From Perkinsus olseni (taxonomy: Eukaryota), in NCBI GenBank assembly GCA_013115125.1, contig JABANN010000147.1, positions 1 to 61,724 on the forward strand: a DNA stretch of 61,724 bases. Direction: 5' to 3'. The notes under the pieces are model-generated. The model did not search any database and had not been told where the DNA came from. It saw only the letters and a program-made list of their open reading frames with translations. Below are positions 18,903-55,488 of this stretch, piece after piece (position 1 is the stretch's first letter; every line of letters begins with the position of its first letter). The translations under genes were made by a program, and so were the position numbers.

Positions 18903-18983
18903 TGACAGGAAGGACACAACAATATGGGGATCAACAGCACGAGGAAGAGTAAGTGTTCAATGACAGTTGACAGAGGAACGACA

Positions 18984-20550
18984 CTATTTAGACTTCTTGC
19001 CACCGTGATGGGCGCCAGGGTCGATGGCCCCCTCGTCCTCGAGGATCTGCCGGGCTACTCGGTTGATGAGCTTGAACCGTAACGGCCCTAGGTGGATGCC
19101 ACCGTACCACCTGAAATCTAGTCTGTCACCCTTGGCAGTCCCATGAGAATACGTACCGAGAAACGACTACCAAGACTCCCTCAGCGCCAGTGAGCGTGAG
19201 GAGCTCTTGAAGCTTCGTCCCCGCTCCGCCCTCCCCATCGGAGTCATGGTCCTGATGGTAGCCTGAGGGAGTGAGCTGGTGTCAGCACAAAACCAAGTAG
19301 AGGCAACAGCCCTACCAAGATCGGCCGACTTCGAGTCCTTCCCGCCCCCCTCCTCCTTCATCTTGAACCGATACGCGTACATGTTGTGCGTGGCCCGCAG
19401 GATCTTGTGGCTCTGCTTCAAAGTATTCAGAGCGATATCTACATCATCCTCGCTCTCAACAAACGCTAGGTGGGCCTGGAACTTGGACTGAGAGAGCAAC
19501 CCATTCTGCACGATGACAACAGCAGCACTGGCGCTACTTTCTTCTCCGTTATCGGCTCCCCTTCCTTCAAGTCAGATGGATCCGCCGTCTTGGGTGCCTT
19601 AGTCGCCCTCCCTTTCCCCTTAAACGCGCTCTTGGAATTGCCTTTTCGGAATTCTTCCTTGCGGCCCTAAAGACTATGCGTTACAACCTCCTTCATTTGC
19701 CAAGACTCCCACCTGCATGGCGGCCATCTGGCTAGCCCAGTCGTTGTATTCCTTCTCGGCCTCTTCTTGCATCTCCTCAGCTTGCTCAGCCTCGGCCTTC
19801 TCTCGCTCAAGGGCTTTCTCACGCTCACTGACCTTCTTTTGTGCCCGGGCTTCGGCTTCCCGCTTCGCCTTCTCTTCCTCCTCCGCCTCCCAAGCCATTC
19901 CGAACTGATCAAGCGAAAGAGACAAGAATAAGAGAATGTAAGGGGAGGGAATATTCTCCACCTCAACTCTATCAACAACGATAGAGACCCACCTTGGTGA
20001 GTAGGTCCTTGACAGGTGCGAGGGCAGCGAGTATAGGGAATTCATAGCCGCCCTTCAGCTGAGTCCATATATTCCCCACTATCAGTTCTTGCAACTTCTC
20101 TAACCAAAGGCAGGGGTACCAACGAGAGATGTAAACCCCCAGTCGTACTTAATTTACTGCACACCGCCTCCGACCCTTCGGCTGCTATAACCTCGGGTAT
20201 GGCGTCGAGGTCGAGTGGATATCCTTTAGGGAGGGTGAACATGAAGGTGGCGTCTGCCTCGACGTCAGTCTCGCCATGGATAGTGATCGCGTAACTGAAA
20301 CCAATACCACACTGAAGCGACGCCCATCACACGAACAAGCGCTCCGGACAGTTGCTGACAAGTACGAAGCAGTGCCGCTTTAACCACTCCGTCCCCCGCA
20401 GTATTATTACGCTACATCCCCATCGTCCGGGCCCGCTGGTCGGTGCAGCCACATAAAACCAACCTCGGGGTCATAGGCTGATCGGAGGGCATCTGCTTCC
20501 TCCAACTGGATTGCTAGACAATCTCGGGTAGCATGCCGCCTGTTTAACAT
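18984..20550 (-). CDS. IMPACT: IMPACT family protein (RWD + UPF0029 domain), copy A
   Basis: RWD start QLEEADALRSAY and FTLPKGYP; C-terminal GEPITEKK|SKFQAH, ATHNMYAYR, DSDGEGGAG, VVVSR|WYGGIHLGPLRFKLIN. Confidence 0.9.
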
Positions 20551-21022
20551 AAGAAAGGGTACTTCTAAACTTCAGGCCACGAAGCATTCACGACGCTCCC
20601 ACCTCTCCCTACCACCCCTCCGGCGTACAACTCGAACCCCTCCCCTCTCACTGTACTATCCAACACACGAACTGACTGGAAACGGACGCTTGAAGTGTCG
20701 AGTGGTACGTGATCCACGACGAGACTCCTCGTCAAGCAGCCGGCGAGCTTACACATTAGTGGTTGTCTGTGCAACGGTCGCCGTTTCGATCTACCCTCTT
20801 TGAAGGCATGGTCCTATGAGAAGCCTCCCAAGCGCGATGGAAGAGTTCACCGCCTTCTCCAGTTGTGCCATGACTGCTACGAATGCCCAACGAAAGAATC
20901 TCTGAACGTTCCATTGGCGTACCATCCAGTCCGCTCATTGACTGGAGGACGCAACAGCCAGCTGATCATCAACAACAACATCACACGGGTAAAAACGCTC
21001 GAAAGTTGACCAAGGAACGATA

Positions 21023-22560
21023 CTATTGAGACTTTTTGCCACCGTGATGGGCACCAGGGACGATGACTCCCTCGTCCTCGAGGATCTGCCGGGCTGCTCG
21101 ATTAATAAGCTTGAATCGCAGGGGACCCATGTGTATGCCACCGTACCACCTACAACCGAGCCAGTCACGGTTGAGAGTCTGAACATACACGTACCGAGAA
21201 ACGACCACCAAGACTCCCTCAGCGCCAGTTAGCGTGAGAAGCTCTTGAAGCTTCGTCCCCGCTCCGCCTTCTCCATCAGAGTCATGGTCCTGGTGATAGC
21301 CTGAGGGAGCGAGCGCTCTAGTGCTAGCGAAACTCATGCAGGCGTCCCTACCGAGGTCGGCGGATTTGTCTCTACCGTTGCTCTCTCTTGTCTTGAACCG
21401 ATAGGCGTACATGTTGTAGGCCCGCAGGATCTTATGGCTCCGTTTTAGAGTGCTCAGCGCGATGTCTACATCTTCCTCGGTCTCGACGAATGCTAAGTGG
21501 GCTTGGAACTTGGACTGAACCAAACAGCTGTCTAAAAAACGGCGCAGACGTCTATGCACAAAAAGAGCGGCCACACCTTCATCTGCGTTATAGGCTCTCC
21601 CTCTTTCCAATCAGTGGGGTCCACCGCCCTAGGCGTCTTATTTCCTCGCTTCCCCTTAGAACCACTCTTAGCCCTTGCGGTCTCCTTGTCGAGCTCGTCC
21701 TTGCGTTCCTGGAAACTGACTCATACCGACAGCCTAGCAGTCCGTGCAGCAGTCCCCACTTGTATGGCAGCCATCTGATCAGCCCAGGCATTGTATTCTT
21801 TCTCTGCCTCCTTCCGCATCAGCTCAGCTCGGTGAGCCTCGGCCTTCTGTCGTTCGATGGCCTCTGCCTTCCGCTTTTCTCGTTCCTCTTCCTTCACCTC
21901 CCAGGCCTCGCCGCACTAAAGGGCACCAACGTGACGATCCCGTGTACTACTCACAACCCCGGCATGCCTGTGCACTTCGAAGAGACTCACCTTGGTCAGT
22001 AAGTCCTTAACAGGTGCGAGGGCAGCGAGTATAGGGAATTCATAGCCGCCCTTCAGCTGAGTCCATATATTCCCCACTATCAGCTCTTGCAACTTCTCTA
22101 ACCAAAGGCAGGGGTACCAACGAGAGGTTTAGGCCCCCAGTCGTACTTAATTTACTACACACCGCCTCAGACCCTTCGGCTGCTATAACCTCGGGTATGA
22201 CGCCGAGGTCGAGTGGATATCCTTTAGGGAGGGTAAACATGAAAGTGGCGTCAGCCTCGACGTCAGTCTCGCCATGGATAGTGATGGCGTAACTGAAACC
22301 AATACCACACTGAAGCGACGAAGTCAAGAGGACGTCCATTCCACCAAAGAGCGCTCCAGACAGCTGCTGACAAGAGCGGAATGCCATAGAAGTGCCGCTG
22401 TGACCACCTCCCCGTATTATTATTACGCTACATCCCCATCGTCCGGGCTCGCTGGTCGGTGCAGCCACATGAAGCCAACCTCGGGGTCATAGGCCGATCG
22501 GAGGGCGTCTGCTTCCTCCAACTGGATTGCTAGACAATCACGACGTGGCATACTGTACAT
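21023..22560 (-). CDS. IMPACT: IMPACT family protein, tandem copy B (ATHN motif altered)
   Basis: Same exon structure as copy A and open after splicing; ILRAYNMYAYR replaces ILRATHNMYAYR. Confidence 0.85.
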
Positions 22561-31793: not shown

Positions 31794-32570
31794 CGAACTG
31801 CAGAAGGCAGCTGCTGGGGGAGGAGAAGAAATACAATCCTGAGAGAACTCACCATCAGAGCCCAACGAGAGGTCGGGGGATCTAGCAAGAGAATCTTTCA
31901 TACGCCAACTCTTATCGGAGTACCCCTCGGTAAATCGGCGTCTAAGAGAAGAGCTCGAGAGCTGAATACTTCCTGAAGCTGCCTGGGCCTGTGATACACT
32001 GCCAAAAGTATGTAAAAAGCCTCGGCGGAGTGACCGAGATCCACGACGTCACCTAGACGCCAGCGCGTAAGTTGCTTCGATCGTTTCGAACGCTGGAGAC
32101 CTGGGACGAGCGAAATTCGAGGAAAATAAAAGGCTGCTGGTCACCAGGGCGAGAAGAGCGTAGCAGGCGTTACATTGAGACGGACAGTGGATCCTGCAAG
32201 CAAGGAAGGAGCACTTGTTCAATCGGGCGACCAAAACACGAGAAAGACGAATCGATTAAAGTGGCGTAGCGAGATATCACCACGCCGACTTGCGTTGTCA
32301 AGACTCTCCATCCTTACGTGTTCGAGGCCGCGTGATAGTGCCCAAACGACGTTCAGGTAGCTCGCTGAGGAACGTTGATTTCAACACAGATATACTCGCC
32401 GATTTCAGCTCAAAAAATACGTCCGAATTTTTATTTTTCGTGACAGAACAGGGCACCGCTATCAGGCTCCATCTCTGCCCACCACAACATCTCTCCGCTA
32501 GCAACGCAGCATGAGTCTGCTTGAGTGAATAGGGGTCGTTGGTCTCAGGCGTTTTGCGTATTTTATCATA

Positions 32571-33955
32571 ATGCTGCTCGGTTTGGACACTCCCTTCAAG
32601 TTTGCCTTATTCATAGGGTACATCGTCGTGTGGACGTCCCAGAGCATTCTGGTCCATCTAGCGGCCAAGAGGGGCATCGAGTATAACTACACTACTGTGG
32701 TCTTCTTGCAGGACTGCTGCAAGATGCTCATCACTGTCTTCTTATTTGTTCGTTCTGAGGGTAGTCTCGGTGACCTCTGGCGCCAAATGGTGGTCCATAA
32801 GAAGTTGGCCGTCCTTTACCTGGTCCCTGCTGGCCTCTATGCGATTTACAACAACCTCACGTTCATATCGATGGCGACCTTCGACCCAGCCACCTACTAT
32901 GTCCTGCTGCAGGCTAAGCTCGTCGTTACCGCCATCCTCTGTGTCACCGTCTTGCACAAGCCTGTGAGCAAAGTACAGTGGCTGGGCCTTTTCATCATAA
33001 CAATAGGCGCCATGATGAAAGAGTAAGCTCTTCCCGTCTTGTCTCATGGTCGACCTTGGATACCATCATCAGATACAAAGTGTTTATCCATGGTTTTGAA
33101 GGAGGGCATTCCATTTGGGATTATCTCCTCGTCCTCTTGCTTGTGTTACTCTCTAGTTTTGCCGGTGTCTACAACGAGAAGCTTCTGAAGGGCCAAGACA
33201 CGGCCAGTCCCAACGTGCAAAATATGTTTATGTAAGCGCTAGGGACAGCCGCGATGGAGGAAGTATGGCTACCTTGTCAGGTACATAGTGTCTATGGCGT
33301 GTAATGCTCTGGGCCTGATGGTGCGGGGTTCTGGCTGGGGCCTCATCACTGCATTTTCGCCCGAGAATCTCAAACCCATTCTCTCATGGAACGTTTTGGC
33401 GATAATATTCAATGCCGCCATCACAGGAGTGATGACTGGTACTATGGCGGGATTTTGAGGGGCTTAGCGGGGCATTCAGAAGCTAGGCTCGAATGATCGA
33501 CTTGGACGCATCGTACTTCAGGCTTCTTCTTAAAGCACTTGAACTCGATTCTCAAGTCCATTGCGGCGGCTATCCAGGTTTGGACAGTGGCAATAACCTC
33601 TTCCATCGTTTTCGGGTACCCCATCGACCTAGGGGTATTCCTGTCCCTCGTACTGGTAATAACTTGGGAACTTTCGCTTGAGGAATTCTGTGCGAAGTCG
33701 AGAATCACTCTTCAACGTGCTTAGGTCACAGCAGGCGTCTGGGTCTACAGTCGATATCCGGAGACGCCCGCTCCCGCTGCGAAACCTGTTCCTACACGTG
33801 AGCCGGGTGATGAGGGTGATGTCGAATTGGGGGCTCTCGACACTAGTAGCGGGTCCGAGTACAACAAGCAGCAGAGTGGCGCTAGCTCGGATGAGCCCTC
33901 CCCAAAGTACGCGAGGAACCGTCCGGGATCGATGTCCGTGACGGGAAAGGAGTAG
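32571..33955 (+). CDS. Nucleotide-sugar transporter, SLC35A family
   Basis: YLVPAGLYAIYNNL, DPATYYVLLQAKLVVTA, SSFAGVYNEKLLK, VQNMFM|Y, FFLKHLNSILKSIA; multiple hydrophobic segments. Confidence 0.9.
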
Positions 33956-34102
33956 CTGTGTGGCTGTTCGGTATTATACGATAGTTCCTCCCAGGTTTAC
34001 AGTTGTAACATCCATCGCACCAATTGAATAAAGAATACTTTTCGGAACTCAAAAGCTGCGTTGAAGAGTCGGGCTGGGGCATTTGGATTGGGCGTTCTCA
34101 GG

Positions 34103-37100
34103 ATGAGTTTTTCCTCTTTGCCATGGCTTGCTGTTTTTCTGCTCGGCACTATCCTGGTGGTAGGGGAGCCGAGCATGAGGTGGGATGGGGGCTCCAGTGG
34201 TTCGGGAGGGATGTAATAAAGGGAAGAGATGGAGTAGTCTGGGGGGGCTGCCCCCGTTCGCTGCCACTATGTTTTCGGGTTGTATTGAGCGCTGACTCAG
34301 TCAACCCGTTCGTGGTCAGTAACTCTGTGCCGGCTGAGGCGCCTTTCGCCGCAGTCCGACCTTGAGTATCCTCTGGGTAGCACCATTCTTCACAGAGTAC
34401 TACTTGAGAGTGCTACCATTACCGTGCTTACGTGTGGGGCTTCGTGGAGGAAATGTAAAGGTTCGACTCACGCGAACATATCAAGTTTTCTCAGGGACCT
34501 CGTCGAACGGATGCATGAACACGCCTTCGGAGGCTACATGAGGTGCCCTCGGCTCTAGTACCGGTGGCTAGCTTTTGGCGCATCCCTCGTTGTAAGATAC
34601 GCGTTCCCGTATGACGAGCTTCGGCCTCTCTCCTGCGATGGACGTATCCTTCGTGAACGAGGGGACCTCGACTTCAACATCGCCAATGTCTCCATGACGT
34701 AGCTGGGAGTGTGAGGTCGAGTGACGGCAGAGTCCATTGGCAGGTACATAGACGCGTTAGATTCGCTAGTGCTTTTCGACAGACTGGAAGACTTTGGAGA
34801 GGCGGTCGATTATATATCACATAATGTGACTTTTGACCGTGATGTGGTGAGCAGGGAAAATGTATGATGCTGGGATAGAACCTGCGACCCATGGTAGGTA
34901 GTCTCGGCCTTTGAACTCAACATCCGCGTTCTTGGGGGACTCCTGTCGGGCCACCTTCATGCCAAACGAATGGGCATACCTTCCGGCTACCAGGACGGCC
35001 TCCTCCAGAAAGCGATCGATCTAGGAGACAGGTGATAGTGCTGTGGACTGCGGTCCTGCCCTGCGGTCCTGCCCTCCCATCTCGGTACCCCGCTCAGGCT
35101 CTACAGAGCCTTCGATACCCCTACAGATCTTCCGGCGGCTCGGGTTAATCTAGCTGGGGGAGTTGATGATGGTGAGGACGTGCCTGACAGTACTTCTGTC
35201 GCGGAGGCTGGTAGTTGGATCTTGGGTGAGGCTATGCGTCGAATTGGAAGATATTACGAAACTTGTGTGCTGCTCAGAGTTCGGAACCCTCAGCTTGCTC
35301 ACAGGCGATTGGAAATATTATAACGCGGCTAGGAAGGCACTCGATCGTTTATGGTAATTTCCCGCCATAATCTCTCTCCGATAGTAGCCGTTTGCCTCTT
35401 TCTTCTTAGGGGTATGAGGATGGGTGCCGCGGCTTTGCTGCCAACCACCATCTCCGTCTCAGCAGGGTTGTGGCAAGACAGTCTCTCGTCGGGAGCCGGG
35501 CCTGGGCATGACTCCTACTATGAGTACAACCCTTCCCTTTCCTAGAGAGAAACCTTGACAGGTCTCTCCAGGTACTTACTCAAGGCTTATGTGCTCTTCG
35601 GTGATGTCGAGCTTTTTGAACGCTTCATGGAGCACTATGAGGGCATCAGTACGATAGTCGGGCTCTCCATTCTGACACCTCTAGCTGTCCAGGTTCTTAT
35701 CAAGCCGGCGGGCAGCTAACGTTTGATATAGCGTTTGACTCACCCGTGCACAGCCAAGTGTCACCCCTTCAGAGCTTCTGGGGTGGAGGTGAGCTCTTGT
35801 GGTGCTCAGGCGTCGTGTATTGGTGCGGGCTTGTCAGTGATAAACTCGATACGAGGGCCCTCAGCCTACGCTACTGCGGTCTCGCGAATGTGGTCTCGAC
35901 TGTGGAATTCCATGCGTGGCCTCCCAGAAGTCGTGGACATAAAAGGTCGAGGTGTGAACTTGATAGCCTACGGACGAGATTTCAATCTCCGGTAAAACTG
36001 GTCGGGAGCGCGGTACTCATGGCGATGGGTACCCTCCTAGGCCCGAGTTGGCGGAGACTCTGGCACAGCTGGGTGCAGCGACGAGTGGCGGTGTCGAGGA
36101 CGAGTCGTACAAGTGGAAGCTAGAGGCAATGGCTCATGACTTGGAGAATAGAACTAAGGTCATAGCCGGGTAGCTCGACGAGAGCTTTCGATTGGTGTGC
36201 GGTACAACTCTCAACTCGTTCGCTTCAAAAATTTATGGGGGATGGGCCTTCTCAAGTCGGCGCCGTGTAGTTGGTCCGTGCATCTTGCATAGCAGGAGGC
36301 TCTTGCTTCGAGCAGCATATTCGGAGATCTAATATTTTAAGAGTGTACCGCTTCCAAGTTTGACTTCCTCAGGTCGTGTGCGGTTACGCATCCATAGCGG
36401 ACGTCCTGGGCCATCGTAACGATGATCGGATGGACAGCTTTTTCCTCAGCGAGACTCTGCCTTACCTGTACTGCTAACCTACTAGTAGATGCGTCTTTCA
36501 GCTGGTCTCCTTGTCAGGTACATGGGGGTGAGCGGCCATTCTGATGTCGTAGCCAGCCGGTTTGGTAGTGGTAGTATGGGCAGAGTGCTCACTACGGAGG
36601 CCCACGTCCTGCCGCTGAAGGGGTTGACTCCCCTCGTTCAACGAGGCCCCGATCGTGCCCATCGTGAGCGGAGTAATAGTAGAGCCCTTCGAGCCCAGTG
36701 AGTGCTATGCCTGGCTCTCAGGTGCAGCAGCCCCTCTCATCTGCCCCAAGGGTCCCTCCCCCCTCTTAAAACTAGCGGATATGGTCGATTGGCACGTATC
36801 CCACGGTGCTTGGAGCGTCTGGCCTCTCTTACCTGCTGCCCTCAGAGTGGCCATTCCGACGGAAGTCACCATGCCTAAGGGGAAAGCACGGTTGGTTATT
36901 CGAGGGGACGGAATGATGGGCGATCGGCCTCTATTCAACCTGAGCGTGGGGACGGCTGTATTCGGTGGTAGGATTCGTGAAAGGAGTGGTATGGAACAAA
37001 CTAAGTGGGATTTGAGCAGAGTCAAGCGAACGAGGTTCGCTGCGATGATACACTCGGGGCCTTCTCTCCGAGCCGCCCTGAAAGAACGAAGAAGCTGCAC

Positions 37101-40713: not shown

Positions 40714-41543
40714 TTCTCTGTCATATTTAGTGTTTCACCAATAAGTTGATGCTACTTCCATCAACTCTTGAGTGGGGTCAATCCCGGGAGGGTGCGCTGT
40801 ACTGTCGTTTGGCAAATCTCATTTGCAGAGCTTCCTGCGAGTGCTGGAGGATGTCGTTGATTTTTGATAAACAATATGGCGCTCATGGAACGAGCAAGAT
40901 CTGCACCGTGGATGAGGCTGCAACTTGTCTGAGATATCGATGATGGGGCTACCGCCGATGTTGGTACCGGCGTATACACGAAGATCTCGGATATCGCGCA
41001 AACCTTCGCGAGTAACTGTTAATTTATCCTGGTTCAGGTCATCTGATTGAATATTCTCTGGCTACGGCGTATCCAGCGTAGATGGCGTAGATGGACGAAA
41101 TCAACGACACTTCTGATCGTCCGCAGCAGGTGAGGTCCTGAGATGGCGCCGACGATTCCCCGCCTCTTGGATTCATGAGTACCACGGGGAGTAGAATTTC
41201 AATTCATGAGCCCGAACCTCAAACCGATAGTGGAGCAGGTGAACCTCCCGGGAGGATAACCACTGCCTTCTATTCTCAACTGCCTGCTCCTTGGGCTTTT
41301 TCACTAAGGGCCTAGGGAAGCTTTTTACGGCACGATGCCTCGCCCGCTACTGTCGGACCGGTGCTATTGACGGAAGCAGCTACCGCTGATCCGCCCACTG
41401 GCAACCAAACGGACTCTCGTCGTAGTAAAGTAGTGTAAGCCCTACGAGGTATAATGAAAGTTACCCTCGCTGGAACTTGACGTTCCGAACTTCCCAACGA
41501 CCCTACCAATGATCGCATTCTCCTTCGGTCATACTCATATGTT

Positions 41544-41565
41544 CTCCACATTGTGGAGTCCACAA
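41544..41565. repeat. Perfect 22-nt scar X[1-7]+rc(X)+X[2-8], X=ctccacaa
   Basis: ctccaca ttgtggag tccacaa read directly. Confidence 0.9.
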
Positions 41566-41922
41566 GGGACCCGAGTGAGTATAATAACGATAGAAGGTTA
41601 ACTACTCATCTCATGGAGAATCTCTGAATGGTACTAGAATAAAATCGGTACACTGATGTGCCCATGAACCAAGAGAGACACGATACGTGCTCGTAGCCGG
41701 CTGATTTCTCTCGCATAGAGCCGACGAGGTGATAACCGATGAGTATGTCAGCACTGGTGACTGGTGACTCACCAGTCCGAGGATGACACGATAGAAGATT
41801 CTTCAAGATTAAAGATCAGCTATTGGATTTAGTAGCACAAACCTTGATGGCCATGAGCCATGGTTGAGTCGAGAAGGAGAGGCCCAAATATACCACATAT
41901 CTGAAACGAGCGCAGATAGGTG

Positions 41923-42744
41923 TCAGACCCAGCCATTGAAGATGGAGAAGATCGCGTAGTGACTTTGGTTTCTCCCAGCTGATATGTTGACAGTAATGTC
42001 GGCGCTGTAATTCCAATGATCCAGGGCCGTGAAGTTGGTTCTGATGAATGGGAAGAACATAACCCTGGAGCTCAGGGAGCCAGCTGTCCCTTCCGCAGAG
42101 ACAATTGCCATGAGCTCATTCAGTCCCTTTTTGTTACTGACTATAGCATGGGCAGTACCATTGCCTTCCGCTCGCACCGTGCCGGCACCGGGAACGGTCG
42201 CTCTGGTTTTCAGGAATATGGGGAAATCGAGCCTTTTCGTACCTAGCCAATCATATCCGCCTACCTTCAGAAAAGTAGGAATAGAGAGATCTACGCCGAC
42301 CGAGATTCCAGCTGGTAGATTGAAGAGCCAGATAGTTCTACCATCCGCCCAAACACCAACATCGACTGGGCTTGAGTTAGACGCCAGCATGACCGCCAAT
42401 TCCAGAGTAGCGAACCCAGTGTACCCAGAGTTATTCGACGCGAAGAGCGCACCACCGTTATATTGGTGAGGGCCCTTCAGAACGTACCAGCAATGATTCT
42501 CTCCCTGGAAACCTTTTCCTGGAGGCAAACAGCCTGGGGGGCTTTCAGTAACAACCGGCAGGCGTAGAGAACGAACTTCAGGGTCCTGGATAGGATTGTC
42601 AACGGCGCCATCCATCACGAGAGCATCGGCCCAGAACGGGTTGACCATTTCGATCAGGAGAATGTTGACAGCGATTCCCCATTTCCAGCTGTTCGACTTT
42701 GAGTCAGTCGCGCAGTCCATCTCTATTCCGTGAGTTGCAGGCAT
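41923..42744 (-). CDS. Intronless secreted/membrane protein of a lineage-specific multigene family, copy 1 (intact)
   Basis: 273-aa ORF; hydrophobic N-terminal segment then MDGAVDNPIQDP...GCLPPG...ASNNSGYTGFATLELAVMLASNSSPVDVGVWADG; paralogues at 44.5 and 53.4 kb. Confidence 0.8.
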   Translation of the reverse strand: MPATHGIEMDCATDSKSNSWKWGIAVNILLIEMVNPFWADALVMDGAVDNPIQDPEVRSLRLPVVTESPPGCLPPGKGFQGENHCWYVLKGPHQYNGGALFASNNSGYTGFATLELAVMLASNSSPVDVGVWADGRTIWLFNLPAGISVGVDLSIPTFLKVGGYDWLGTKRLDFPIFLKTRATVPGAGTVRAEGNGTAHAIVSNKKGLNELMAIVSAEGTAGSLSSRVMFFPFIRTNFTALDHWNYSADITVNISAGRNQSHYAIFSIFNGWV

Positions 42745-43422
42745 TCACGCAGGAAAGGTGGAAGCTCGACGAGAAAACAATTTTGACTTGTTTCTCATGA
42801 CGATAGAGTCCCTGCCGGGCAAGGTGTCCAAGGAGTTGTGGTGGGTGGAGCCCGCACAACCGTTGTGCAACAACGGTGTCACCGTGACTTCAGGGCCAAA
42901 CGGCTTAACCCGAGTAACGCCGGATGGCAGATCCGGGATCTTCCGAGATCAGGTCCGGCCGGCATTTACTGGAGTTCACTGTGAACTGTTCCCATCAATC
43001 TCGAATGACGATTCAAGCGCTGTCAGGTCCACATCGCAAAATGTGCGGACCGCAGAAATCTCCCCGGAGCCGCCTGTCTCGGTCGCATCAGCGTGACCGC
43101 GCAAATTGTGCGACACAGTGGTCGGCGACCACTGGTCGTAGCCTGCGAGACCAGTCACTGGCCATCAGCGGCAGTACCTGGAAACTAGCTGATCTTAGTG
43201 GAATGCACCGCATGTATGCCTCGAGAGAAGTTACTCTCCTATGTAAGGCGCGGATCCTAAAGGTAACACGGGAGCGACCGAAGGTACATATTGGGTCGTT
43301 AATGCAACCGATGGCTCGTGCGCACAACGGAAGATGCTGCAGTGCAACTCCAGGACCGCTTTGGGGATATTGTTATCAGACCTTGGCCCTGGCACGCCTT
43401 CGAGGTAAAGTTCACACAGGCA

Positions 43423-43444
43423 CACCAGCAGCTGGTGACCAGCT
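43423..43444. repeat. Perfect 22-nt scar, X=caccagct
   Basis: caccagc agctggtg accagct read directly. Confidence 0.9.
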
Positions 43445-43753
43445 GATGATTCAAACCGACAACCCCCCCACAGAGGCTTCTTCTGTAGCATCTACACGTT
43501 GAGAGAGAAGTGGGTCTCCTCTGGTAGACTTGCAAATTCTGGGAACCCGCAAGTAGTTGAGATGGTATCCGGTGGCTTGTCACCGATGGTGATGATGCGT
43601 CGCATCCGATGCGGACTACTGTACTTGTGTCATCGGTTTACTGCGTTCGTGAATGACTCCATGAGGGATGGCTGGGTAGTCTGATCGCCAGACTGTGGTG
43701 AATCACCACTGGTGGTGGTCTCCGTCTCGCAGAAATTCCGCGCGACATCCCGT

Positions 43754-43784
43754 CGCGAGACATTCCGCAGCGGAATGTCTCGCG
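43754..43784. repeat. Perfect 15-bp inverted repeat with 1-nt axis
   Basis: cgcgagacattccgc a gcggaatgtctcgcg. Confidence 0.95.
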
Positions 43785-44009
43785 CGTGCTTCTGGCAGAC
43801 AGCGATCCATTGACGGCCCCCCCCCGGCAAGATCTCGGGTGTAATCATCGATCCCACGGGGCGGGGAATAATCGAACGATCATACAACGCGATGTTGATG
43901 CCCTCGAGGGAACCCGCGACTCCATTGAGATAATGTAGCTCTGAGGAATCTATCGCACCGAAAAAGTCGAGAGCCGCTCTTTTTACTCTATGCTGTAGTC
44001 GTCTCTTCT

Positions 44010-44031
44010 CAGTTGTTACAACTGAGTTGTA
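44010..44031. repeat. Perfect 22-nt scar, X=cagttgta
   Basis: cagttgt tacaactg agttgta read directly. Confidence 0.9.
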
Positions 44032-44450
44032 ACTTCGGAACGCAACCTGGGGTGTCGGGAGGCCAAGGAAATAGTCGCCGCGCCCTGACTTGGCGCGAAT
44101 GCGGGCCGCTCACTAATATAGCTTATATGTCTATTCCATCTTCTGCGCACAACGTCGCAAACCCACTTCACAATTTCCGATCGGGTCCTTTCCGCATGCG
44201 GACTCATCGCCTGCCAATGCTACTGCAAGCGCCTGAAGCGTTACGCAAACTTGCAACTCAAAACCCTTCTGCATCTATTCAATAGACCAATAGATTTTAT
44301 TGGTCCTAGCGCTGAGGTAATAATGTATACCGAAGAACAGAATTCCACCACGTTAGTGATCATCGCAAAGCACTATAGGATTAGCGGTACTGTAACTCTA
44401 AGTTCCAATCCTCGTAGCGACATAGCCGATCACAGCAGGCATGATGATGC

Positions 44451-44876
44451 TCAAACGAATGGGAAAGGATTGGCCGGGCTGGTCGCAACCGGGACGAACC
44501 CCCGGAAATAATCATATCCGCCGGTCTTCGAGGAGGTTGGAATAGAGAGGTCTACGCCGACCGATATCCCATACGCTAAATCGAAGAGCCAGAGAGTTCG
44601 ACCATCCGCCCAAACACCAACATCGACTGGACTTGAGTTGGGCGCCAGGATGACCGCCATTTCCAGAGTAGCGAAGCCAGTGTACCCAGAATTATTCGAG
44701 GCCATAAGTACACCTCCGTTAACTTGGCTGGGGCCCTTCAGAACGTACCCACAATAGCTCTTTTCCTGAAAACCCGCACCCGGTGGCAAACAACCCGGGG
44801 GCTTTTCATTCACAACGGGCAGACGCAGAGAACGAAGATCAGGGTCTTGCATAGGGTTGGCAACGGGACCATCCAT
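44451..44876 (-). pseudogene. Multigene family copy 2, truncated
   Basis: Homologous to copy 1 up to GGYD, then an early stop; the hydrophobic segment after aaaggtataatcgtt seen in copy 3 is largely missing. Confidence 0.7.
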
Positions 44877-46167
44877 TTTGAGGGCATCAGCGTTGGTAAC
44901 GATTATACCTTTTTAATGCTTTGTCTTCGAGACGGCCTCACAATTGACCCTGGTTGCATAAGCAGCACACATCAATGCGAGAGAAGTACGACAACTGTAT
45001 TAACAAAGAATTGTGACGCTCCAACATGCCATCGCAAGTTACAAATGCTCTGGCACAGTTGCCGTGGCCCGATGGACCAACTGAAATTAAGGATGCTGGA
45101 GCAATCCGCTGCATACTGAATGATTTGAGACTAAATATTGGTGTGTATACTAATCTCATATGGAGGGTGCATATGTCCGTGCTTATATGCAAGTCAGCGA
45201 AGATCACACGCGTCAAGTGGGACCAACCAAACCGTGAGCTTCAGCACGTTCACAATCCGGTCGTGACAGGGTGCAAGGGCCCGGAAAATGCGACCCTGCG
45301 TTCATCGCTCTGATTTGCTTGCTCATGAGTGCAAAAATGCCACCTTGGAAATCCATTCTTTGACGAATGCCGGTGCAGACTGGAACGGAGGAACGACCAA
45401 TGGTGGGAACCGCACGGTAGATTATGACCGGCGTATGCGGGCAACTGGTTGTGCGCATATGCGGAAATCATTTCTCGGAATTGCACGGATCGAGGGCTTG
45501 GTTACTAACGGGTCTTTGACCAGAGCGCGTTGGGAATAAGAGGAGACTTAAGAAAGCCAGGTTACCATCTCTGGGTGGTTGCTGCGTTGCACTTTCGGAG
45601 TCACTCTCCGACAGCATCGGAAGTGTTAACCAGGTTAGCTTAACCTCAATTGAACTTCACCTAAACTCCAGGCCCTAGAGAAGCGCTTGCTGCGATTGAC
45701 GATTCAAGATAAGACGTTCTGCAACGTCTGTAAGGAGCGGGGTAGAAGGTTCTCTTACTGTGGACTCAACCATCTGAATAGAAAAACGGTATTTTGCTAT
45801 CTCCCTTTGTGCTACTCCCTACAGTGAAGGCTCCTTTATGAAAGTCACGGGCGGCAGATGCTCGCAGCGAATACTGTGCAGGAGAAGTCCAAAAGTGATA
45901 TTCTCGCGGCCTGAAGTCCCAGTTCTCGAGAATCTCGAGCATCTATATCGTGGCCTTATGTGATTCGGAAGTGCGTGGCTACTTGACTTTTTCCGGCATC
46001 TGTTCAACACCATTGTGGATCATTTTTCGGAGAGCTGGTAGTGTTGAGCTAAGCACCCTATGATCTTACCGCGGAGCTGTTCTGGCCTAATCCTGTTGGT
46101 GAATATTGGGCGCATATCCCTAGTTTTTTGAGACCTAGTTCATTTTCGTTGAAAATTTGTGGCTTTT

Positions 46168-49100
46168 ATGGATATCGGTTCATTCGGACTGAAGGAGTCG
46201 TTAGTATTGGTCTACCGGACGAGAGGTGTGAACCAGCTCTACGAGTGGCAGAGTGAGTGCCTCTCCCTCCCTGGTGTCCTCGAGGGTAACCGAAACCTCA
46301 TCTACTGTGCCCCAACCAGTGGCGGTAAAACACTGGTGTCCGAGATCGTCATGCTCCGCCGACTTGCTGGTGATGGCCGTCGTGCTTTATTCGTGTTACC
46401 GTATATCAGTGTGGTCTCGGAGAAAGAGGCCTACCTCCAGAGTCTTTGCCGCCCTGCTCAGTACAAGGTGCAGGCTTTTTACGGAGGTTCTTCTGGCAAC
46501 TTCCTTGCGATGGAGCGGTACGACATAGCAGTATGCACCATCGAGAAGGCTAACAGCTTGGTCAATGCCCTTCTGGAACAGCCGGGGGTTGATCCTGGGT
46601 CAGAACTCTCACGACTGCTAGGTTGCCTGGTATTGGACGAACTCCATCTCCTCGGCGATAGTCAGCGGGGGTACCTCCTGGAAGTCCTAGTAGCTAAGGT
46701 ACGGTACTTTGCCCCGACATGCCAGATAGTCGGCATGTCTGCAACGCTTCCGAACGTCTCTGAAGTAGCAGCTTGGCTTGACGCCAGCCTTTACGTCACG
46801 GACTTCCGCCCCGTCCCCCTGCACGAGTACGTAGTGTGCACGCGAACTGTCTTCACCTGTGATGGAGATCGTAGACCAGTTCGTGCCCTTGAGGACTCCA
46901 ACAAGCTGATGCCCGCGACAGATACCGACGGGTTCATGCTCGCCGTGTGGGAGGCCGTATCAGTTGGCAATTCAGTACTCGTGTTCTGCCCCTCTAAAAT
47001 GAAGTGTGAGGTAGCATGCGGTCTTCTAACTAAATCGTTGCCTTGGGCGTCCGCCCCTCTTGCGCCCCAGGATACCCATAACCACCGCCTTCAACTGCGT
47101 GCTGAGCTCGAACTGTGCAGCTGCAACACGGGCGCCGGGCTGGACAAGAACTTGGCCGATGGCATCTTGGTCGGGGTGGCCTTCCACCACAGCGGCCTTA
47201 CTACTGAGGAGCGGGATATTGTGGAGCGGGGATATAGGAGTGGAGCTATTACGTGCCTTACTTGTACCAGTACTCTCGCAGCTGGAGTGAACCTTCCTGC
47301 CCAGCGAGTCGTCTTTAGAACTCCATTCATCGCCACAGAGTTCCTCGACACGACAAGGTACCGACAAATGTCTGGCAGAGCTGGCCGGTCGGGTCATTCC
47401 AGTGCCTCGGGTGAAAGCTACGTCATTTGCTCCAGCGAAGTTGAGAAGAAACGTGTAACGTCGATGGCCGTGGCTGCGTTGCCGCCTCTTAGAAGCGCTC
47501 TTGGCCAGAACTGTGTAGGCTTACAGCGTCTCTTATTAGAGGTTATGGCGACGGCCGGCCAGATGAAGGACGATCAGATCATGCGTTTGGCGAGAGCCAC
47601 CTTCCTGGATCGCCAGCTCGACGCGCCAAGCGACCAGAAGAAGAGGCGCAACAGCGTAGCTGAGGATTTTCCTGCGGTCCACGCCGGTATGAAGTACCTG
47701 TTATCGACAGAGATGGTCCGCTTTAACCGTGACAACCAGCTGTACATGGCTACTCCTCTCGGACGAGCTGTGTGTGCTAGCGGCCTCAGCTGTGAAGCGG
47801 GTATCGTGCTTTGGGAGGAGCTGAAGCGCCTTCGGAATCAGACCGGTCTGTGCCTGGAGGGAGAGCTTCACTTAATCTACCTGGCGACGCCATGGGAAGC
47901 GTCAGTTTCCGAGTCGTTGATCGACTGGAATGTCTATGCTGCCGTTGTTGAAGGCGACCTCAGCAAACAGCAGCAAGCGTCTCTGGATGTCATTGGCATC
48001 AGTATGGCGAAGATACAACAAGCTTCGATACAAGGGAGGCTCAGTCAGGCTGCCAAAGAACGCGATCCTGAAGGATGTCGCCGGGTCGTGAAGTTCTACA
48101 GTACTCTCCTAATTTGGGCCCTAATGTGTGAGATACCGATAGAACAGGTTATCCATCGTTTTGGATCCAAGATAGGCCGAGGCTTGCTGCAGTCCCTCAT
48201 ATCCTCTGCCAGTGCGTTCACTTCGTGCATTGCGGTTTTCTGCGGCAAACTCCGCTGGAGAGTCCTAGAATCCGTCTTCGACACCTTTGCTGGCCGTCTG
48301 TCCAGCATGTGCCATCGTCGGCCTGAGCTGCTCGCTTTGTCTGAGATACCCAAGCTGTCGCCAGCCTGGGCACGCCAGTTGTATGATGCGGGCTTTGTGA
48401 GTCCGAAGATGGTGGCTGGTGCTACTCCTCAAGAATTACAGTCGGTCCTGCGGCGTGTTCTACCGCGACAGATTCCTGATGTACCGGAAGACGCTCTTGA
48501 GAGGCTCATCAAGGACGCTGCCCTCACAGCCAAAGAGCAGCGGAAACAGAAGCTGAGAGAGGCTAGGGAGGTTCAAGTCACGGTCTCCCACCGGCCTATA
48601 CCGGAGGCTCCTCCTGTTGTGCTGAGTACGCCATTTGTTTCTGACGAGAATGACCCCACAGTGCAGCCGCGCAGTCCTGTCAGATCTACTCGGCTGTCGT
48701 CTGCCAGTATGTTCACTCCTGGTGGTGGCTGTGGGGACCCATCCCAGGTGGGGTTCACGCCTGCGACGGGCTATAACGACGTATTGGATCCGACAGAGTT
48801 CCTGTGGGCATCTCAACGCAACCGATGTGATGTGACCGTCGAGGTGGACCCTGAGCGGCTGTCAGCTGGTTTGAGTAGACTCGGCCGTAGGAGTCTCACG
48901 CTGAAAGACAGGTTGTCGAGGTCCTCAGCTCAAGGGCAAGCGCTCTCCTCGATGCATCCAGCCAAGCGAAGGCGTCTCACAGCAGCCTCCGTCCGCACCT
49001 CGGGAGAGGCTGCCACTCCAGACACCTCCCTCCTCGAGCAGGACGTTGAGCCGATGGAGCGACGTCGTAGCTCGGTTGCCAACCCCCGAGACTTGCAGCA

Positions 49101-51617
49101 GCGCTACTGGATGGTGCGGTTCCTCGCCGCTATGCCTCCCCTCGCCAGTGCAGGGGGTCTCTTCGACCTCACCGACGTCATCCGCGAGGGAATCAATGTT
49201 CTGGTATGCCAACCGGGAGTCCGGGACAGCATGACCGTAATGTGGCTTTACGGCAATGCTGTGGAATACGCTATAGTGAACGAGTCTATGGATGAACTGA
49301 GGTGCATCCTCGAGGGCACGGCTCAATATAAACTCATCATCACAGAATCAGCGGCTGACTTCTGGAGGTTGTTGAAGCGAAAGAACCCCGTCATGCGGTG
49401 CTCAGCGTGCACGTCTACGGTCGTCGTAGACCCGCAGCTTATGTCCTGGCTCCGCGACCCGGAGGACTCAACTGGCCCGTCGCTGGAGAAGTATGTCAAG
49501 CGACTGTCAGCTCCTCATTATCTCGACCGAGACTTGAAGCAGTGTCTTGCTCTTTACACTCTCTGCGCGGAACTTGGTCGTGGCTTGGTGCAGCACCCAG
49601 GCCTCCTCGAGCTCCTTGTTACGTTGGAGGCACCCACTGCTGCTCTCCTTGTCGACATGGAGACGACAGGGCTGATGGTCACTCCGTCTTACTGGTTTCA
49701 CTGGCAGGGCAAACATGCGAGGTATAAAATACAGGCTCTCGAAGTAGCCGTTCGAGAGGCTGTTGGCCGCTATGTAGCCCTAGGGAACGCCGAGGATGTT
49801 AGCAAGGCCATATTCGATGACCTTGCTGTACCGGTACCCGAAGGACTGAGGCCGCGTAAGGTGAAGAAGAACGGTCACAAAATCTACGCCGTGGACCAGA
49901 AGATGCTCATGCAGCTGGAACCTCCCGAGCGCTGCCGTGATCTCTTCGACTGGATCATAGAGCACCGGCGTCTCAGTCACGCCCTGAGCAAATACGCTAT
50001 CATCGACCGTCACGTGATACATGATGGACTGAGAGTTCACACTGTCTTCTCCCAGACGGGTGAGCTCTTGCGTATATCATTCATGCTGCTCCCTGAACGG
50101 CCCTCCTGTTTTCCGGCAGGCACTGCTACGGGGCGGCTGAAGTCAACGGACCCGAATTTGCTGACGGTGGAGAATGCTTTCGAAATATCAGATGTGTGCC
50201 GGCCCTCTGTGGCGACTGACTTCCATGGAGGACACCTCAATCTGCTACAAGAAGGTGATTCTTCGGTCGTACGATGGTCCCCTTCAGGATGTTTAGGTAC
50301 CGACGTATTCGCGTCCCTCATAACTGCGCCTCCGCCCTCGCATCGGGCCCTCATCGAAGCAAGACTGGTCTCCGTGTCGGGTAGCCTTACTGCAGCCGAC
50401 GAAATCGTTCCCGGTGCGATCTCGGCTGCTGTGAGGGGGCGCCCTCTCGGCGAGTAGGACTACATTTCAATCCATAAGCACTGAAGCCATAGTGTTCAGG
50501 TACTGGTCCACATATGGTTGGCCGGGTTACAACAACGCGGATGCAGCTCGTCGTGTCCCTCAATGTACAGTGCAGCTCGCGACGGGGCAGAAACTCGTGT
50601 GGGCCTTCAGGAGGGACCCGTGCGACTCAAAAAACAGGCTGACACTCAGGTTCCCTGCGGACCAAGTCTTCCGTCAGAATGCCGCCGTCACACTCACTGG
50701 TGTTGATGCCAATGCTCGGAAACGCATTATAGCCTTACGGTATGCCTTCGTTGCTCCCAAGGGGCGATTGCTTCTCAGTGTTGACTACTGCCAGCTTGAG
50801 GTGATCTATTCCGTTGCGGCAAAGAATCCACCATCACGTATGGTTAGGCCCGGCTCTTGGCACACTTCTGCGGAGATCCGAGGCTCATCGCACTCTTCAA
50901 CCAGCCAGTTGCAGAACGTTCAGTAGAGCCGACCTACGACATCTTCATCCACATAGCGTCAACGTGGCTGTCTAAGCCGCTGAGTGAGGTCACTGACGTA
51001 GAGCGCAATGGTATCAAGCAGCTAGTTTATGGGGTCATTTACGGTATGGGCGCTCGCAGCTTATCTCGAGAAATGGGTGTCACACTAGCGGAGGGTGAAG
51101 CTCTGATGAACAAATTCGACAGCGAGTTTCCACGAGTGCGTGAGTGGACGAGGTCAGTCATCCAGGATGCCACTAGGGAGGGCGCTTCTGTACCGAGCAT
51201 ACTTGGCCGACCTCGGCATTTGGCTGGGCTCGGTGGCACTCCACAGGAGCGAGCAAGAGCGCAGAGGCAAGCCGTGAACACCACGTGCCAAGCTAGTGCG
51301 GCAGACATCATGAAAGCCGCTACGCTAAAGGTCGCTGCGAGGCTGATGACGATGCGGGACGAGAACGGGTAGCCCATCGCTGGTCAGTGGGAGAACTCCA
51401 TCGAGGATGTTCTCCTTTCAGTCGTCCCCCAGCTGAAATACTCCTGCAAATTCACGACGAGCTGCTCCTCGAGGTCGATGAAGATCGGGTCGGGGATATT
51501 GCAGACATTGTCGTCGAGGCTATGGTGAAGGCTGTTCCATTGACCGTTAAACTGCAGGTGAAGTGGGGGACAGGCCGGACCTGGGGATCTATACAAACAG
51601 CATGTATCGGTGCATAG
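46168..51617 (+). CDS. POLQ: DNA polymerase theta (SF2 helicase + A-family polymerase)
   Basis: Helicase motifs APTSGGKT, DELH, GMSAT, STLAAGVNLPA, QMSGRAGR; polymerase motifs GTATGRL, SVDYCQLE|ARLLAHF, KQLVYGVIYGMG, RQAVNTTCQASAADIMK, LQIHDELLLE. About 3.9-kb first exon, then short introns. Confidence 0.95.
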
Positions 51618-52842
51618 TTTCTCATATCCTATTTGCATGAGTTTTATAGGGCCGTTCTCGGGCGGAGTTTCCATGGTTAAAGCACTCTGGGCTGATGAGT
51701 CTTGGGGGAGCCGTTTCGCGAGAACATCGAGGCAGCGACAAGCGTCGCTCCTCCATTGAAAACCGCTGTTTTGTTCCCCGTCAACAGGCTGGAAGCTCTC
51801 GCCGACTTCTCCGGCTATCGACGGCTCGATGGTAAGGGTTCTCTCCACTACCCACCAGCTCATCGCGTCACCTGGGGTCAGTCACCGAGAGTTGTGAGTG
51901 ATGGCTTAGCATACAACGCGATGAGCGTAACTGTTACGGTGATTGTTGTGCTATAAGTATATCGGAGGTCCTCGTTGTTCGTTGTTTAATACATCCGAAC
52001 CGCCCTTCTCTAATGCTGTGCTTGTTGCCGAGTAGCGACGCGGTTTCACGTTCGGACATGGGCAATCGAGGCTTCTTCAACTCCGTCAAGCCAGCAAGAC
52101 CGGTGCTCCTTCCATCCTGGAAGTTCCATGCCTTGCATTCATACAGTGTTTTCCTCTATTAGAGAGCATTTTAGAGACGGCCGGCAATTTGAGAAAGATT
52201 TACATACGTGTGGACCGCTGAGACCTCCGAAGCATACGATTCTATAGTGCACGCCAGCCAAGGGGGAAACTCTCATGAACAAATACGATAGCTCCGACGA
52301 GCGGGCGAGTCGCCTACAAGATCGGTAATCCAAGGCGCCACCACGCAGGATGCATCTGTACGAGCATACTTGGCCAACCTCGATATTTGTTCGATGCCAC
52401 TTCGCTGAGGTAAGCTTGAGCGCAGGAGCCGGCGGTGATCACTACGGCGCGGTAACCTGTCGTTAATCGCGATCTGACGATGTGGCAGCTGAGTTCGGAC
52501 TACGATTACACCATCAATTAAACTCGAGAGAGGATGCAGCAATGGGCGGTGCAATAGTCCCCATAGAACACTGTAGAGCACTGGTAGTGCTGAGTGGCTA
52601 CGAGAGCTAAGTGGTGTTGACTCTCCATTTCGGAGCCCTAGGGTTAAGTCCTGATGTTTTTGAAGATTCTGCAATTTACTTCGAAACGTTCATCTAAGGT
52701 GTTCACCCCCTTTCTCGGTTTGTCACTTCACTTGGATGCTCTGAGCATCATGCGCATATACTGCTGATCTGCGAATTTCCTATGTATGCGACGCATACTA
52801 CGCGTGCGCGAAGGGTCGCATGATTAATCATTGTAATCGGAA

Positions 52843-52864
52843 TAGTGGCAGCCACTAAGTGGCT
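52843..52864. repeat. Perfect 22-nt scar, X=tagtggct
   Basis: tagtggc agccacta agtggct read directly. Confidence 0.9.
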
Positions 52865-53366
52865 CTGCTATTCTGGTTGCACCGTCTATCAGTAGGCTAT
52901 CTACGTATTCTTCTCTATCTCTGAATGAATATTATTCCCTCGATGTAAATCTTCATGACTTTTTCTCTGCAAGTACATTCTATTGGATCTGTTATTTCAT
53001 TTCTTTTTTTCTTCGATCATTCTAGTACTGTTACTAGCGCTATTCCTATTACATTCTATTTCTATCACTCGCAACACGTCTAACGATGGGTATACAAATG
53101 GAAAAGGGTTGGCCACGCAATGGTGGTTGTTCTCATCAAGACATCATTGAAAGACTATGAGTCGTATACGACAATAATTGCACTACGGAGCCGGCAGAAT
53201 CACACTGAATAACTGGTGACGACAGAAATAAAGACTTCAAGAATCGAACTATGTATGATTACGACAATTACGGTGGTTGAGCAAAACTAGCCGATAGTTC
53301 AAAGAAGGACGGGCTCGATTCGACATAGATCATGTGAAAAATAACAAAAACTAATGTGGATCCATA

Positions 53367-54196
53367 TCAGACTGTGAACTCGAAAACGGGAAAGCGGTTG
53401 TTGTAGGCGATGCGCAAAGCGTCCATTCTACCATGGGTACCAATATCCACGTACCCGGTACAATGCCAAGGCTGGAACGCTTTGGTACTACGCACGAGAT
53501 CTCCGGTGAACACTATGCCAGATTCCCAGGCACCAATTGTTCCTTCTGCAAAGACAGTTACCACGAGCGAATGCCATCCATCCGTCGTATCCACAGAAGC
53601 ATAGGCAGTGCCATTGGACTCCGCCCTCACGGTGCCGAAGAAAGGGACTGTCACTCTGGTTTTCAGGAATACTAGGAATGTGATCTCCTTCCCATGATTG
53701 AAATCGTACCCGTCGGTCTTCGAGAAAGTCGGAATGGAGAGCTCTACGCCGACCGAGATCCCAGCTGGCAGATTGAAGAGCCAGATAGTTTTGCCATCCG
53801 CCCAAACACCAACATCGACTGGGCTTGAGTTAGACGCCAGCATGACCGCCAATTCCAGAGTAGCGAACCCAGTGTACCCAGAATTATTCGAGGCCATAAG
53901 TACACCCGCGTTAACTTAGTGAGGGCCCTTCAAAACATACCCGCAATAGCTCTTTCCCTGGAAACCCGCGCCTGGGGACAAACAACCTGGGGGTTTTCAG
54001 CCACAACTGGCAAATGTAGAGAACGGAGTTCAGGGTCCTGGATAGGGTTGGCAATGGTACCATCCATCTCGAGGGCAGCAACGCAGACCGAAATAACCAC
54101 TTGGATCAAGACAATGTAGAGAACGATTATACCTTTCCAACCCTTTGTGTTCGAGGCGCCCTCGCAAGTGAACCTGGCTCCGATAGCAGTAGTCAT
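53367..54196 (-). pseudogene. Multigene family copy 3 with frameshift and nonsense codon
   Basis: Full-length homology to copy 1; 1-nt deletion around 53989-53997 (GAAAACCCCCAGGT, one base short) and in-frame TAA at 53916-53918 where paralogues have CAA. Confidence 0.8.
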
Positions 54197-55488
54197 CAGT
54201 CCAGTATGGTAAAGTATGGGAGCTCGCCCATCGAATGGCTATGGCTATGAATGGTGGTTTTGACCCCGTCAGACTTACGCACAAGCCGTTCAGGATTGTA
54301 CAACCCCCACAACGGTAACCAGAATATCACAATGACCACGAAGCAGGCCAGCCGGGAACTGGGCAGTTGGAGACGCTTTTACACCCGAGTGATACTTCAG
54401 GGGCACACACCTATAACTCATAGTGATTGCGAATGACTGTCGGACTGCTTCTGAGAGGAGCCTCACGTGAGACGAGCATTGTGAGTGTGACACAATTTTT
54501 GGGACAACGCACAGGAGGGAAGCAAGTAGGGGTTTTCGGAATGGGTTCGAAGAGACGAAGCTTGGTGAAAGGAGTCTCCTCTGAGGAGGGTCCTCAGAAA
54601 AAAAGTGTGAAAAAAACTGCCACGGGAGCAAAATCGACTCCTCTGCATGAGGGAGGAGGGTTGAGCTGCACATGATTATTGCGTCGATGCGCCCGGTGAG
54701 TACGTGCGCACTGTAGTGGCAACTACCTTCATTGCTGCTACGTACCCACCTTGCTCTTCGTGCGCCTTTGCACGTTATACGTATCGTTATTCGTGCCCTC
54801 GTTCGTCCCAGTGAACACGTGCATTTCTCGTCAAGCTATGGAACATACGTTCACCCTAGATCCAACAACTAGATCAGTTTTCCCGAACTCCTCTCGAGTC
54901 CGGTTCCACCTTTCTTTGAGCCCCGTCTCAAATAGCCACACTGTACTGAGTTATATAGTGCACGTGCATGCGGGCTCATCAACGAGCGCCGACTCATTCT
55001 GTCTCATCTTCGCGCCGACTTCGACTTCGCTCTTGCGACTGAGAACTTGAACTATTCCCACTATCGTGAAATGAACCCGGGAGGACGTGGCATGCTCAGT
55101 GGTCTCAAAACAGAGAGTCTTCATCAGACTATGATAATGTGATCGAGGAGTCGTCGCCAGAAGATCTTTCGCTATCCGTTGGAGTGCGTGTCGGGCAGGT
55201 CCAAGCCCCAACTCTGCCATAGGAGTGACAAAAGACATGGCACGTCACGTCGCATTTGTTGAACCACCGCAAGTCGATTTCAGTCCCAGCCCACTAAAGT
55301 TTTCGTCTAGATGGTGAAGGCTTGGAGCCCTAGGCTTCACCGTGAAGCTGCTGATTCGACGTTAAAATTTCGGGCGGAGTGAGGGAAGAGAATGTAACGT
55401 TGCGGTTCATTCAATTCTCCGAAAATAAAAGTAGTCTGAAGTCCCTTACTGAAAAACAAGAATACTAACAGTGAGAAACATCGTACAA

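Follow-up and report, generated by a model that had tools for sequence, protein, structure and literature searches.

A field of palindromic 22-nt scars resembling transposon excision footprints in a contig of Perkinsus olseni

We describe a field of 22-nucleotide (nt) units in 61,724 nt of the protist parasite Perkinsus olseni (assembly GCA_013115125.1, contig JABANN010000147.1, positions 1 to 61,724; hereafter the window). In each unit an 8-mer X is written forward, inverted and forward again, as X[1-7]+rc(X)+X[2-8] (rc, reverse complement), with a different 8-mer at each site. The recurrence of this unit, in which X has length k=8, is real and far beyond chance. We propose, with a probability of about 0.6, that each unit is the excision footprint of a cut-and-paste transposon that duplicated 8 bp at its target and formed hairpins on the flanks, and that the breaks were uniformly repaired through annealed inverted copies. 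The scars act like excision footprints of the hAT superfamily, membership of which is unproven. The proposal rests on the geometry itself, its limit to k=8, a rule that fixes the axis letters, the odd axis, one apparent empty site, a nested pair of scars and presence in independent sequence.

Geometry and distribution of the units

A preliminary description of this DNA had listed four perfect units and seven with one mismatch, and each reappeared exactly in our scan of the sequence, which also brought to light two single-substitution units, at 41472-41493 and 52109-52130. Two further sites that it had called degenerate are both present; one deviates at its axis letters alone and the other is a chain of four arms. 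The end that it gave to the field, 55348, closes a nested double unit. The scars, for which no strand is assigned, are as follows; X7/X8 denotes contigs from two further sequencing runs of the same organism, described below.

41472-41493: one substitution in the middle arm (geometry scan; absent from the preliminary description)
41544-41565: perfect (geometry scan)
42854-42875: one substitution in the third arm (geometry scan; X7/X8 contig without a 14-nt gap)
42973-42994: one substitution in the third arm (geometry scan; X7/X8 contig without a 14-nt gap)
43118-43139: one substitution in the pair of positions 8 and 22 (geometry scan; X7/X8 contig without a 14-nt gap)
43423-43444: perfect (geometry scan; X7/X8 contig without a 14-nt gap)
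43593-43614: deviating at both axis letters only; two perfect stem-6 palindromes
43695-43716: one substitution in the third arm (geometry scan; X7/X8 contig without a 14-nt gap)
44010-44031: perfect, about 17 nt inside a multi-copy repeat of about 200 nt (geometry scan)
45625-45646: one substitution in the middle arm (geometry scan)
52109-52130: one substitution in the middle arm (geometry scan; absent from the preliminary description)
52735-52756: one substitution in the third arm (geometry scan)
52784-52805: one substitution in the third arm (geometry scan)
52843-52864: perfect (geometry scan)
54568-54596: degenerate chain of four arms, its three axes spaced by 7 nt; could not be reduced to simple events
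55313-55348: nested double scar, a scar inside a scar (8+14+14 = 36 nt)
42921-42942: possible older scar with three substitutions, the individual call uncertain (21 in this class against 6.75 simulated)
43098-43119: possible older scar with three substitutions, the individual call likewise uncertain (same class)

Both the preliminary claim that the pattern exceeds chance and the expectation that enrichment would be specific to k=8 held when the window was scanned at k=5-11 against 100 first-order Markov simulations. At k=8 four units are perfect, and the count rises to 10 when one broken pair is allowed and to 16 when two are, for simulated means of 0, 0.04 and 0.26. Not a single unit of any of these three classes was found at k=9, 10 or 11, and k=5 and k=6 showed no excess over chance. 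At k=7 the counts were 0, 0 and 10, the last against a simulated mean of 3.0 (maximum 9), an excess that we take, by assumption, to consist of sub-patterns of the k=8 units. Counted instead by substitutions from the perfect unit, the window holds 4, 9, 4 and 21 units with zero, one, two and three changes, where 20 simulations gave 0, 0, 0.5 and 6.75. All of the roughly 17 units with at most two substitutions lie within two gene-poor stretches, 41472-45646 and 52109-55348, and none in the other ~53 kb, in keeping with the two islands to which the field had originally been confined.

A generalised scan, which sought two adjacent odd palindromes with axes a distance D apart and flanked by an offset direct repeat, under any left/right split of the letters and at distances of 1-18, found enrichment at D=7 alone: 13 matches with at most one mismatch against none simulated, with D=3-6 and D=8-18 at chance level across the window. 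The very uniform repair that had been suggested agrees with an axis distance of 7 in 13 of 13 detectable footprints. The axis letters follow a rule of their own, by which the left axis is complementary to the base that ends X and the right axis to the base that begins it. When units were detected by their 12 inner pairs alone, leaving both axis letters free, 28 of 34 tests within the islands obeyed the rule and 3 of 10 elsewhere did, for an expectation of 25% by chance. The unit at 43593-43614 is an exception, with 12 of 12 inner pairs intact and both axis rules broken.

The single-base axis is equally characteristic. Units of the even form X+rc(X)+X were absent at k=6-11 with at most one mismatch, a single k=6 match appearing at two mismatches; at k=5 the raw counts, which had no simulation alongside, were 0, 2 and 20. 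With a stem of at least 7, there are 18 perfect odd palindromes across the islands' 8.5 kb and five in the other 53 kb, and perfect even palindromes of the same stem number none in the islands and two elsewhere. Across the 13 units, nine substitutions in 13x22 = 286 positions amount to a decay of about 3%.

The nested scar at 55313-55348 records a succession of events. Its inner scar, 55317-55338, carries two substitutions in the middle arm, and deleting its 14 nt gives back a perfect outer scar. Because the structure resolves exactly in this way, two rounds of the same operation are implied, the later one having worked on what the earlier one had produced.

Independent read sets, a diverged isolate and an apparent empty site

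Palindromes are a known outcome of chimeric reads, and the preliminary description had raised the worry that the scars might be fold-back artefacts of library or assembly. Neither contigs from two studies nor a diverged isolate support this. Short-read contigs from both studies' runs are identical to the window, with 0 differences, over 42400-44706 and 44685-53823, a comparison in which both run sets may be the source of the assembly itself. The runs X7/X8 are more distant, only about a quarter of sampled words being present in them. Their contig across 42629-43781 shows 34 substitutions in 1153 positions (~3%) and 13-14 gap letters (net +11/+12), so that no 14-nt block corresponding to any of the six scars there has dropped out. 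Over 52098-52607 these runs yield contigs with 0 gaps, and over 53871-54749 contigs with six gap letters. In all, eight scars lie within stretches covered by X7/X8 contigs without any 14-nt gap. Many units, moreover, carry substitutions. Presence in the read sets and in the diverged isolate indicates that the scars are not assembly artefacts, an explanation to which we assign almost no weight, and that most of them predate the split of the isolates. The decay of the scars (9/286) is close in size to the divergence of the isolates (34/1153), which fits an old burst.

A paralogous 10-kb contig runs colinear and without gaps across the scar at 41472-41493, which is therefore older than that duplication. 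Over 41416-41700 the X7/X8 contigs have 15 letters fewer in total, compatible with absence there of the scar at 41544-41565, and over 45425-46023 the X7 allele is 17 letters shorter, compatible with absence of the scar at 45625-45646; the X7/X8 indel tables give totals, from which single 14-nt gaps cannot be singled out.

A candidate for a site before insertion comes from the scar at 44010-44031. Read-contig depth is about five times single copy in the bin 43735-44201, which implies that the ~200-nt repeat holding this scar has several genomic copies. Four contigs of the run X2, derived from other copies of the repeat, align rightwards from 44025, in the third arm of the scar; upstream of that point they do not align, and a consensus drawn from these portions (30 letters, agreement 0.73) matches the reference just ahead of 44010. 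Paralogous copies of the repeat therefore appear to carry the single X predicted for an empty site. The preliminary description had expected alleles with a single X or with an element between two copies of X; the first kind has an apparent example here, and no site of the second kind is present in the window.

The same observations bear on the idea that the units are selected structural elements, such as alternative RNA or DNA hairpins or protein-binding palindromes. Each unit can indeed form two mutually exclusive hairpins, and the units cluster in intergenic DNA. They share no sequence, however, and their geometry, axis letters included, reads as a signature of mutation; the insertion appears to be missing from other copies of the repeat at 44010-44031, the arms accumulate changes roughly as neutral sequence would, and the window has no Rfam matches. 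We consider selection for structure very unlikely.

A proposed excision mechanism and its alternatives

From these features we infer a transposon and its superfamily, the way in which its hairpins are opened, a repair that relies on microhomology or polymerase theta, and a tendency of the element to hop locally. In the route that we propose, insertion of the transposon would duplicate the 8-mer X. Excision would nick each flank one base inside the duplication, after which the flank would close as a covalent hairpin, reading x1..x7, x8', x7'..x1' on the left and, on the top strand, x8'..x2', x1', x2..x8 on the right. Opening of the hairpins 8 nt or more from the tip, or their re-extension through snap-back synthesis on a self-complementary tail, would then leave two 3' tails complementary to one another over the inverted 8-mer and nowhere else. 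Annealing of this 8-nt microhomology, flap trimming and gap filling would yield X[1-7]+rc(X)+X[2-8], a gain of 14 nt, whatever the point of opening. Such a derivation would account for the uniform geometry of the units, for their gain of 14 nt and for the letter at each axis. The oddness of the palindromes would follow from a nick one base into the flank, as in the chemistry of Hermes, which Zhou et al. in 2004 reportedly found to nick at that position before the flank hairpin forms.

Clustering can be considered against the genes around the scars, which are as follows.

41923-42744, minus strand: member of a Perkinsus-specific gene family, with no Pfam family
44510-44886 and 53598-54128: paralogous fragments of the 41923-42744 family (sequence similarity)
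46153-51617, plus strand: DNA polymerase theta gene (helicase and family A polymerase; DEAD, Helicase_C and POLQ helical domains)

The polymerase theta gene separates the two scar fields, and the scars lie between and around the gene-family copies, never inside them. The three family copies are known from Perkinsus olseni records only, an island ORF matching nothing but hypothetical proteins of this species, and the copy at 53367-53915 spans part of the full-length copy. The polymerase part of the polymerase theta gene is spread over several frames, which could reflect short introns or frame errors. The distribution may have arisen if one or a few elements hopped locally through two tolerant intergenic stretches, leaving one scar per hop, while insertions in the polymerase theta gene between them, as an essential gene, were selected against and the element was since lost from the window. 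Local hopping would be in character, as hAT elements are described as reinserting near the donor site in the excerpted text of PMC2753552.

Several results weigh against this account. A search of the window for an element-filled site, defined as an 8-bp direct repeat with terminal inverted repeats matching at 10 or more of 12 positions and 30-6000 nt apart, found none that we accept; the sole match, at 8604-10458, lies outside the islands and is at chance level. Longer inverted repeats in the islands include none that is element-like. As the preliminary description had noted, no transposase came to light, a statement that covers the 28 open reading frames (ORFs) scanned for transposase domains, including all island ORFs of about 100 amino acids or more and part of the window's smaller ORFs and frames. 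Our literature search found no report of hAT elements in Perkinsus, only of Dada and Merlin remnants, and Dada elements duplicate 6-7 bp. The constancy of the axis distance is itself a difficulty, since known hAT footprints are heterogeneous. Scars are also missing from the remaining stretches of the window with low GC content and few ORFs (1-3900 and 32000-35600).

The target letters also depart from expectation. Hermes and hobo have the target consensus nTnnnnAn; here T occupies position 2 in 6 of 13 sites and A position 7 in 2 of 13. A symmetric consensus is not universal among hAT elements, Tol2 having no strict target specificity according to the part of PMC2753552 that deals with it. The preliminary description had seen no strong consensus among the 8-mers. 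The border letters are skewed on the plus strand: position -1 is A/T in 9 of 13 sites, x1 is G/C in 11 of 13, x8 is A/T in 10 of 13 and position +1 is G/C in 9 of 13. Both borders of X are thus skewed alike, A/T then G/C. When x1 was compared with x8 in a Fisher test, p was 0.015, a value that takes 9/13 A/T at x8 rather than the counted 10, and the skew is a post hoc observation on 13 sites. Of the substitutions confined to a single arm, five are in the third and none is in the first, a borderline bias ((2/3)^8 = 0.04; binomial test 0.03) on which we do not rely, since the first arm is altered in units that are more degenerate. From a transposase with two-fold symmetry that inserts in either orientation at random, one would expect neither the target skew nor the arm bias, and both hint at an oriented step.

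One way to accommodate such a step is a deterministic hairpin-and-anneal route in Perkinsus, possibly dependent on polymerase theta, that turns the excision of every 8-bp-duplicating element into an identical scar, with oriented events. On that reading, which we regard as improbable, the plus-strand skew would reflect, for instance, excision competence tied to replication direction or a domesticated, asymmetric recombinase beside the gene family. Were the scars genome-wide, they would amount to a sequence-independent fossil record of transposon hops, invisible to ordinary repeat finders.

A transposon may also be dispensed with. Strand-oriented repair or replication, by polymerase theta end joining or by template switching of the nascent strand, could copy 8 nt back and then forward where DNA breaks spontaneously in the islands. 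All 14 inserted letters are templated from the site itself, a complete polymerase theta gene sits between both scar fields, and the plus-strand asymmetry of flanking letters and substitutions would fit a fork-oriented process; the empty site and the nested unit fit this explanation just as well. Templated insertions by polymerases vary in length, however, whereas k=8 and +14 nt are fixed in 13 of 13 units. By our own reasoning, self-priming snap-back needs several unpaired loop bases, and here the pairing runs unbroken as far as a lone axis base, the identity of which follows the hairpin rule and points to covalent hairpins. Two interlocked hairpins, in addition, require a prior duplication of X. 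On account of the single-base axis and of this required duplication we rank transposon-free insertion below transposon excision and hold it to be unlikely.

Alternatively, the mechanism could be as we propose and the agent another, either a superfamily other than hAT that duplicates 8 bp (Merlin, P, Zisupton, Novosib) or a domesticated hairpin-forming transposase resembling Kat1 or RAG and active repeatedly at these islands. The superfamilies P, Zisupton and Novosib all make duplications of 8 bp. Merlin-related ORFs and remnants have been reported in Perkinsus marinus, with superfamily duplications of 8-9 bp (excerpted from PMC8101967). The scars are limited to the surroundings of one Perkinsus-specific gene family, and the target asymmetry could mean an asymmetric complex or a fixed orientation. 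Against such an agent, the window has no k=9 units; no description of the excision chemistry of Merlin, P, Zisupton or Novosib was found in the literature covered. The 28 ORFs scanned in the window include no gene for such a transposase. As for a domesticated enzyme, scars that are fixed, decayed and common to a diverged isolate speak for germline events and not for ongoing programmed cuts. We therefore view a different agent with doubt. The hAT interpretation of the preliminary description, as to which unit length 8, the axis rule, the odd axis, the apparent empty site and the nested event speak in favour and the missing target symmetry and the lack of a filled site or transposase in the window against, is partly supported and, at the same probability of about 0.6, the best available, its agent itself unseen.

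Two other palindromes in the first island may belong to the same history.

43754-43784: perfect 31-nt odd palindrome with stem 15 and a single-base axis (no strand assigned)
41759-41777: solitary, non-canonical odd palindrome with stem 9, beside a 7-nt direct repeat (no strand assigned)

These two, together with the four-arm chain at 54568-54596, may be one-sided or compound footprints. Directly to the right of the 31-nt palindrome, about 154 nt (43782-43935) in the bin of fivefold depth are replaced by 8 letters in X7/X8, and 133 nt at 45008-45140 have 4 letters in their stead in the same runs. A high-copy repeat at 54476-54955 has a summed contig depth of about 45-70 times single copy in all four runs; many contigs break at about 54708, 54800, 54913 and 54952-54955, and the repeat has no Pfam, Rfam or tRNA match. 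Neither Rfam nor ARAGORN detected RNA genes in the window. Elsewhere, a tandem segmental duplication joins 18962-20523 and 21001-22539 at 80-89% identity, one copy encoding a UPF0029 (IMPACT-like) domain.

Relation to known systems

If our proposal is correct, the scars let about 17 former hops of a transposon be read from 8.5 kb of a protist parasite genome, in a window from which the element itself is gone. They would show how an alveolate repairs hairpin-capped breaks, with one long-microhomology product against the mixed joints of plants, yeasts and animals, and would constitute a repeat class recognisable by geometry alone, for which any genome could be scanned as a sign of extinct hAT-type activity. 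Our literature search, which did not extend to key older footprint papers, turned up no account of precisely this product recurring in a genome; the 22-nt product may already have been seen among experimental yeast footprints.

Other processes that leave palindromic additions resemble the scars in part. P nucleotides at V(D)J coding joints, Transib and MULE elements share with them the off-centre opening of covalent flank hairpins. Those hairpins are even, as in the 43+43-nt flank hairpin of the MULE Muta1 (PMC5499845, in excerpt), and the duplications of MULE, Transib and RAG are 8-10 or 5 bp, in contrast to the single-base axis and exclusive k=8 found here. Templated insertions by polymerase theta and short template-switch mutations likewise place inverted adjacent copies at a repaired break, with microhomology at the junctions. 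They vary in length and position, whereas our units have a fixed length and perfect pairing to a single-base axis; templating from the site is shared with them, and a variable length is not, the gain being fixed at 14 nt.

The closest likeness is to the footprints of hAT elements such as Ac/Ds, Hermes, Tol2 and Tam3, in which an 8-bp duplication is the unit and the palindromic arms have at their centre the complement of the base bordering the element (the latter from the covered part of PMC5873905). Repair of hAT breaks proceeds through flank-hairpin intermediates, and most joints show microhomology (PMC1978519; and PMC5873905, in the same part). That part of PMC5873905 also reports footprint arms of up to 20 nt in yeast, with arms of at least 3 nt in just 47% there, and 28 footprint types among 128 events in Candida. 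The scars share with hAT footprints the 8-bp base, the rule for an odd, single-base axis and, for one scar (44010-44031), a single-X empty site; they lack a symmetric target preference and heterogeneous repair products. Published footprints are heterogeneous and mostly short, whereas every detectable event here gave a single full-length product, in which both arms measure 7 nt and are joined across the whole inverted 8-mer. The present field differs further in that the window has no element and in that its target letters are strand-asymmetric. What is new relative to known hAT footprints is this single deterministic product and its occurrence as a dense field.

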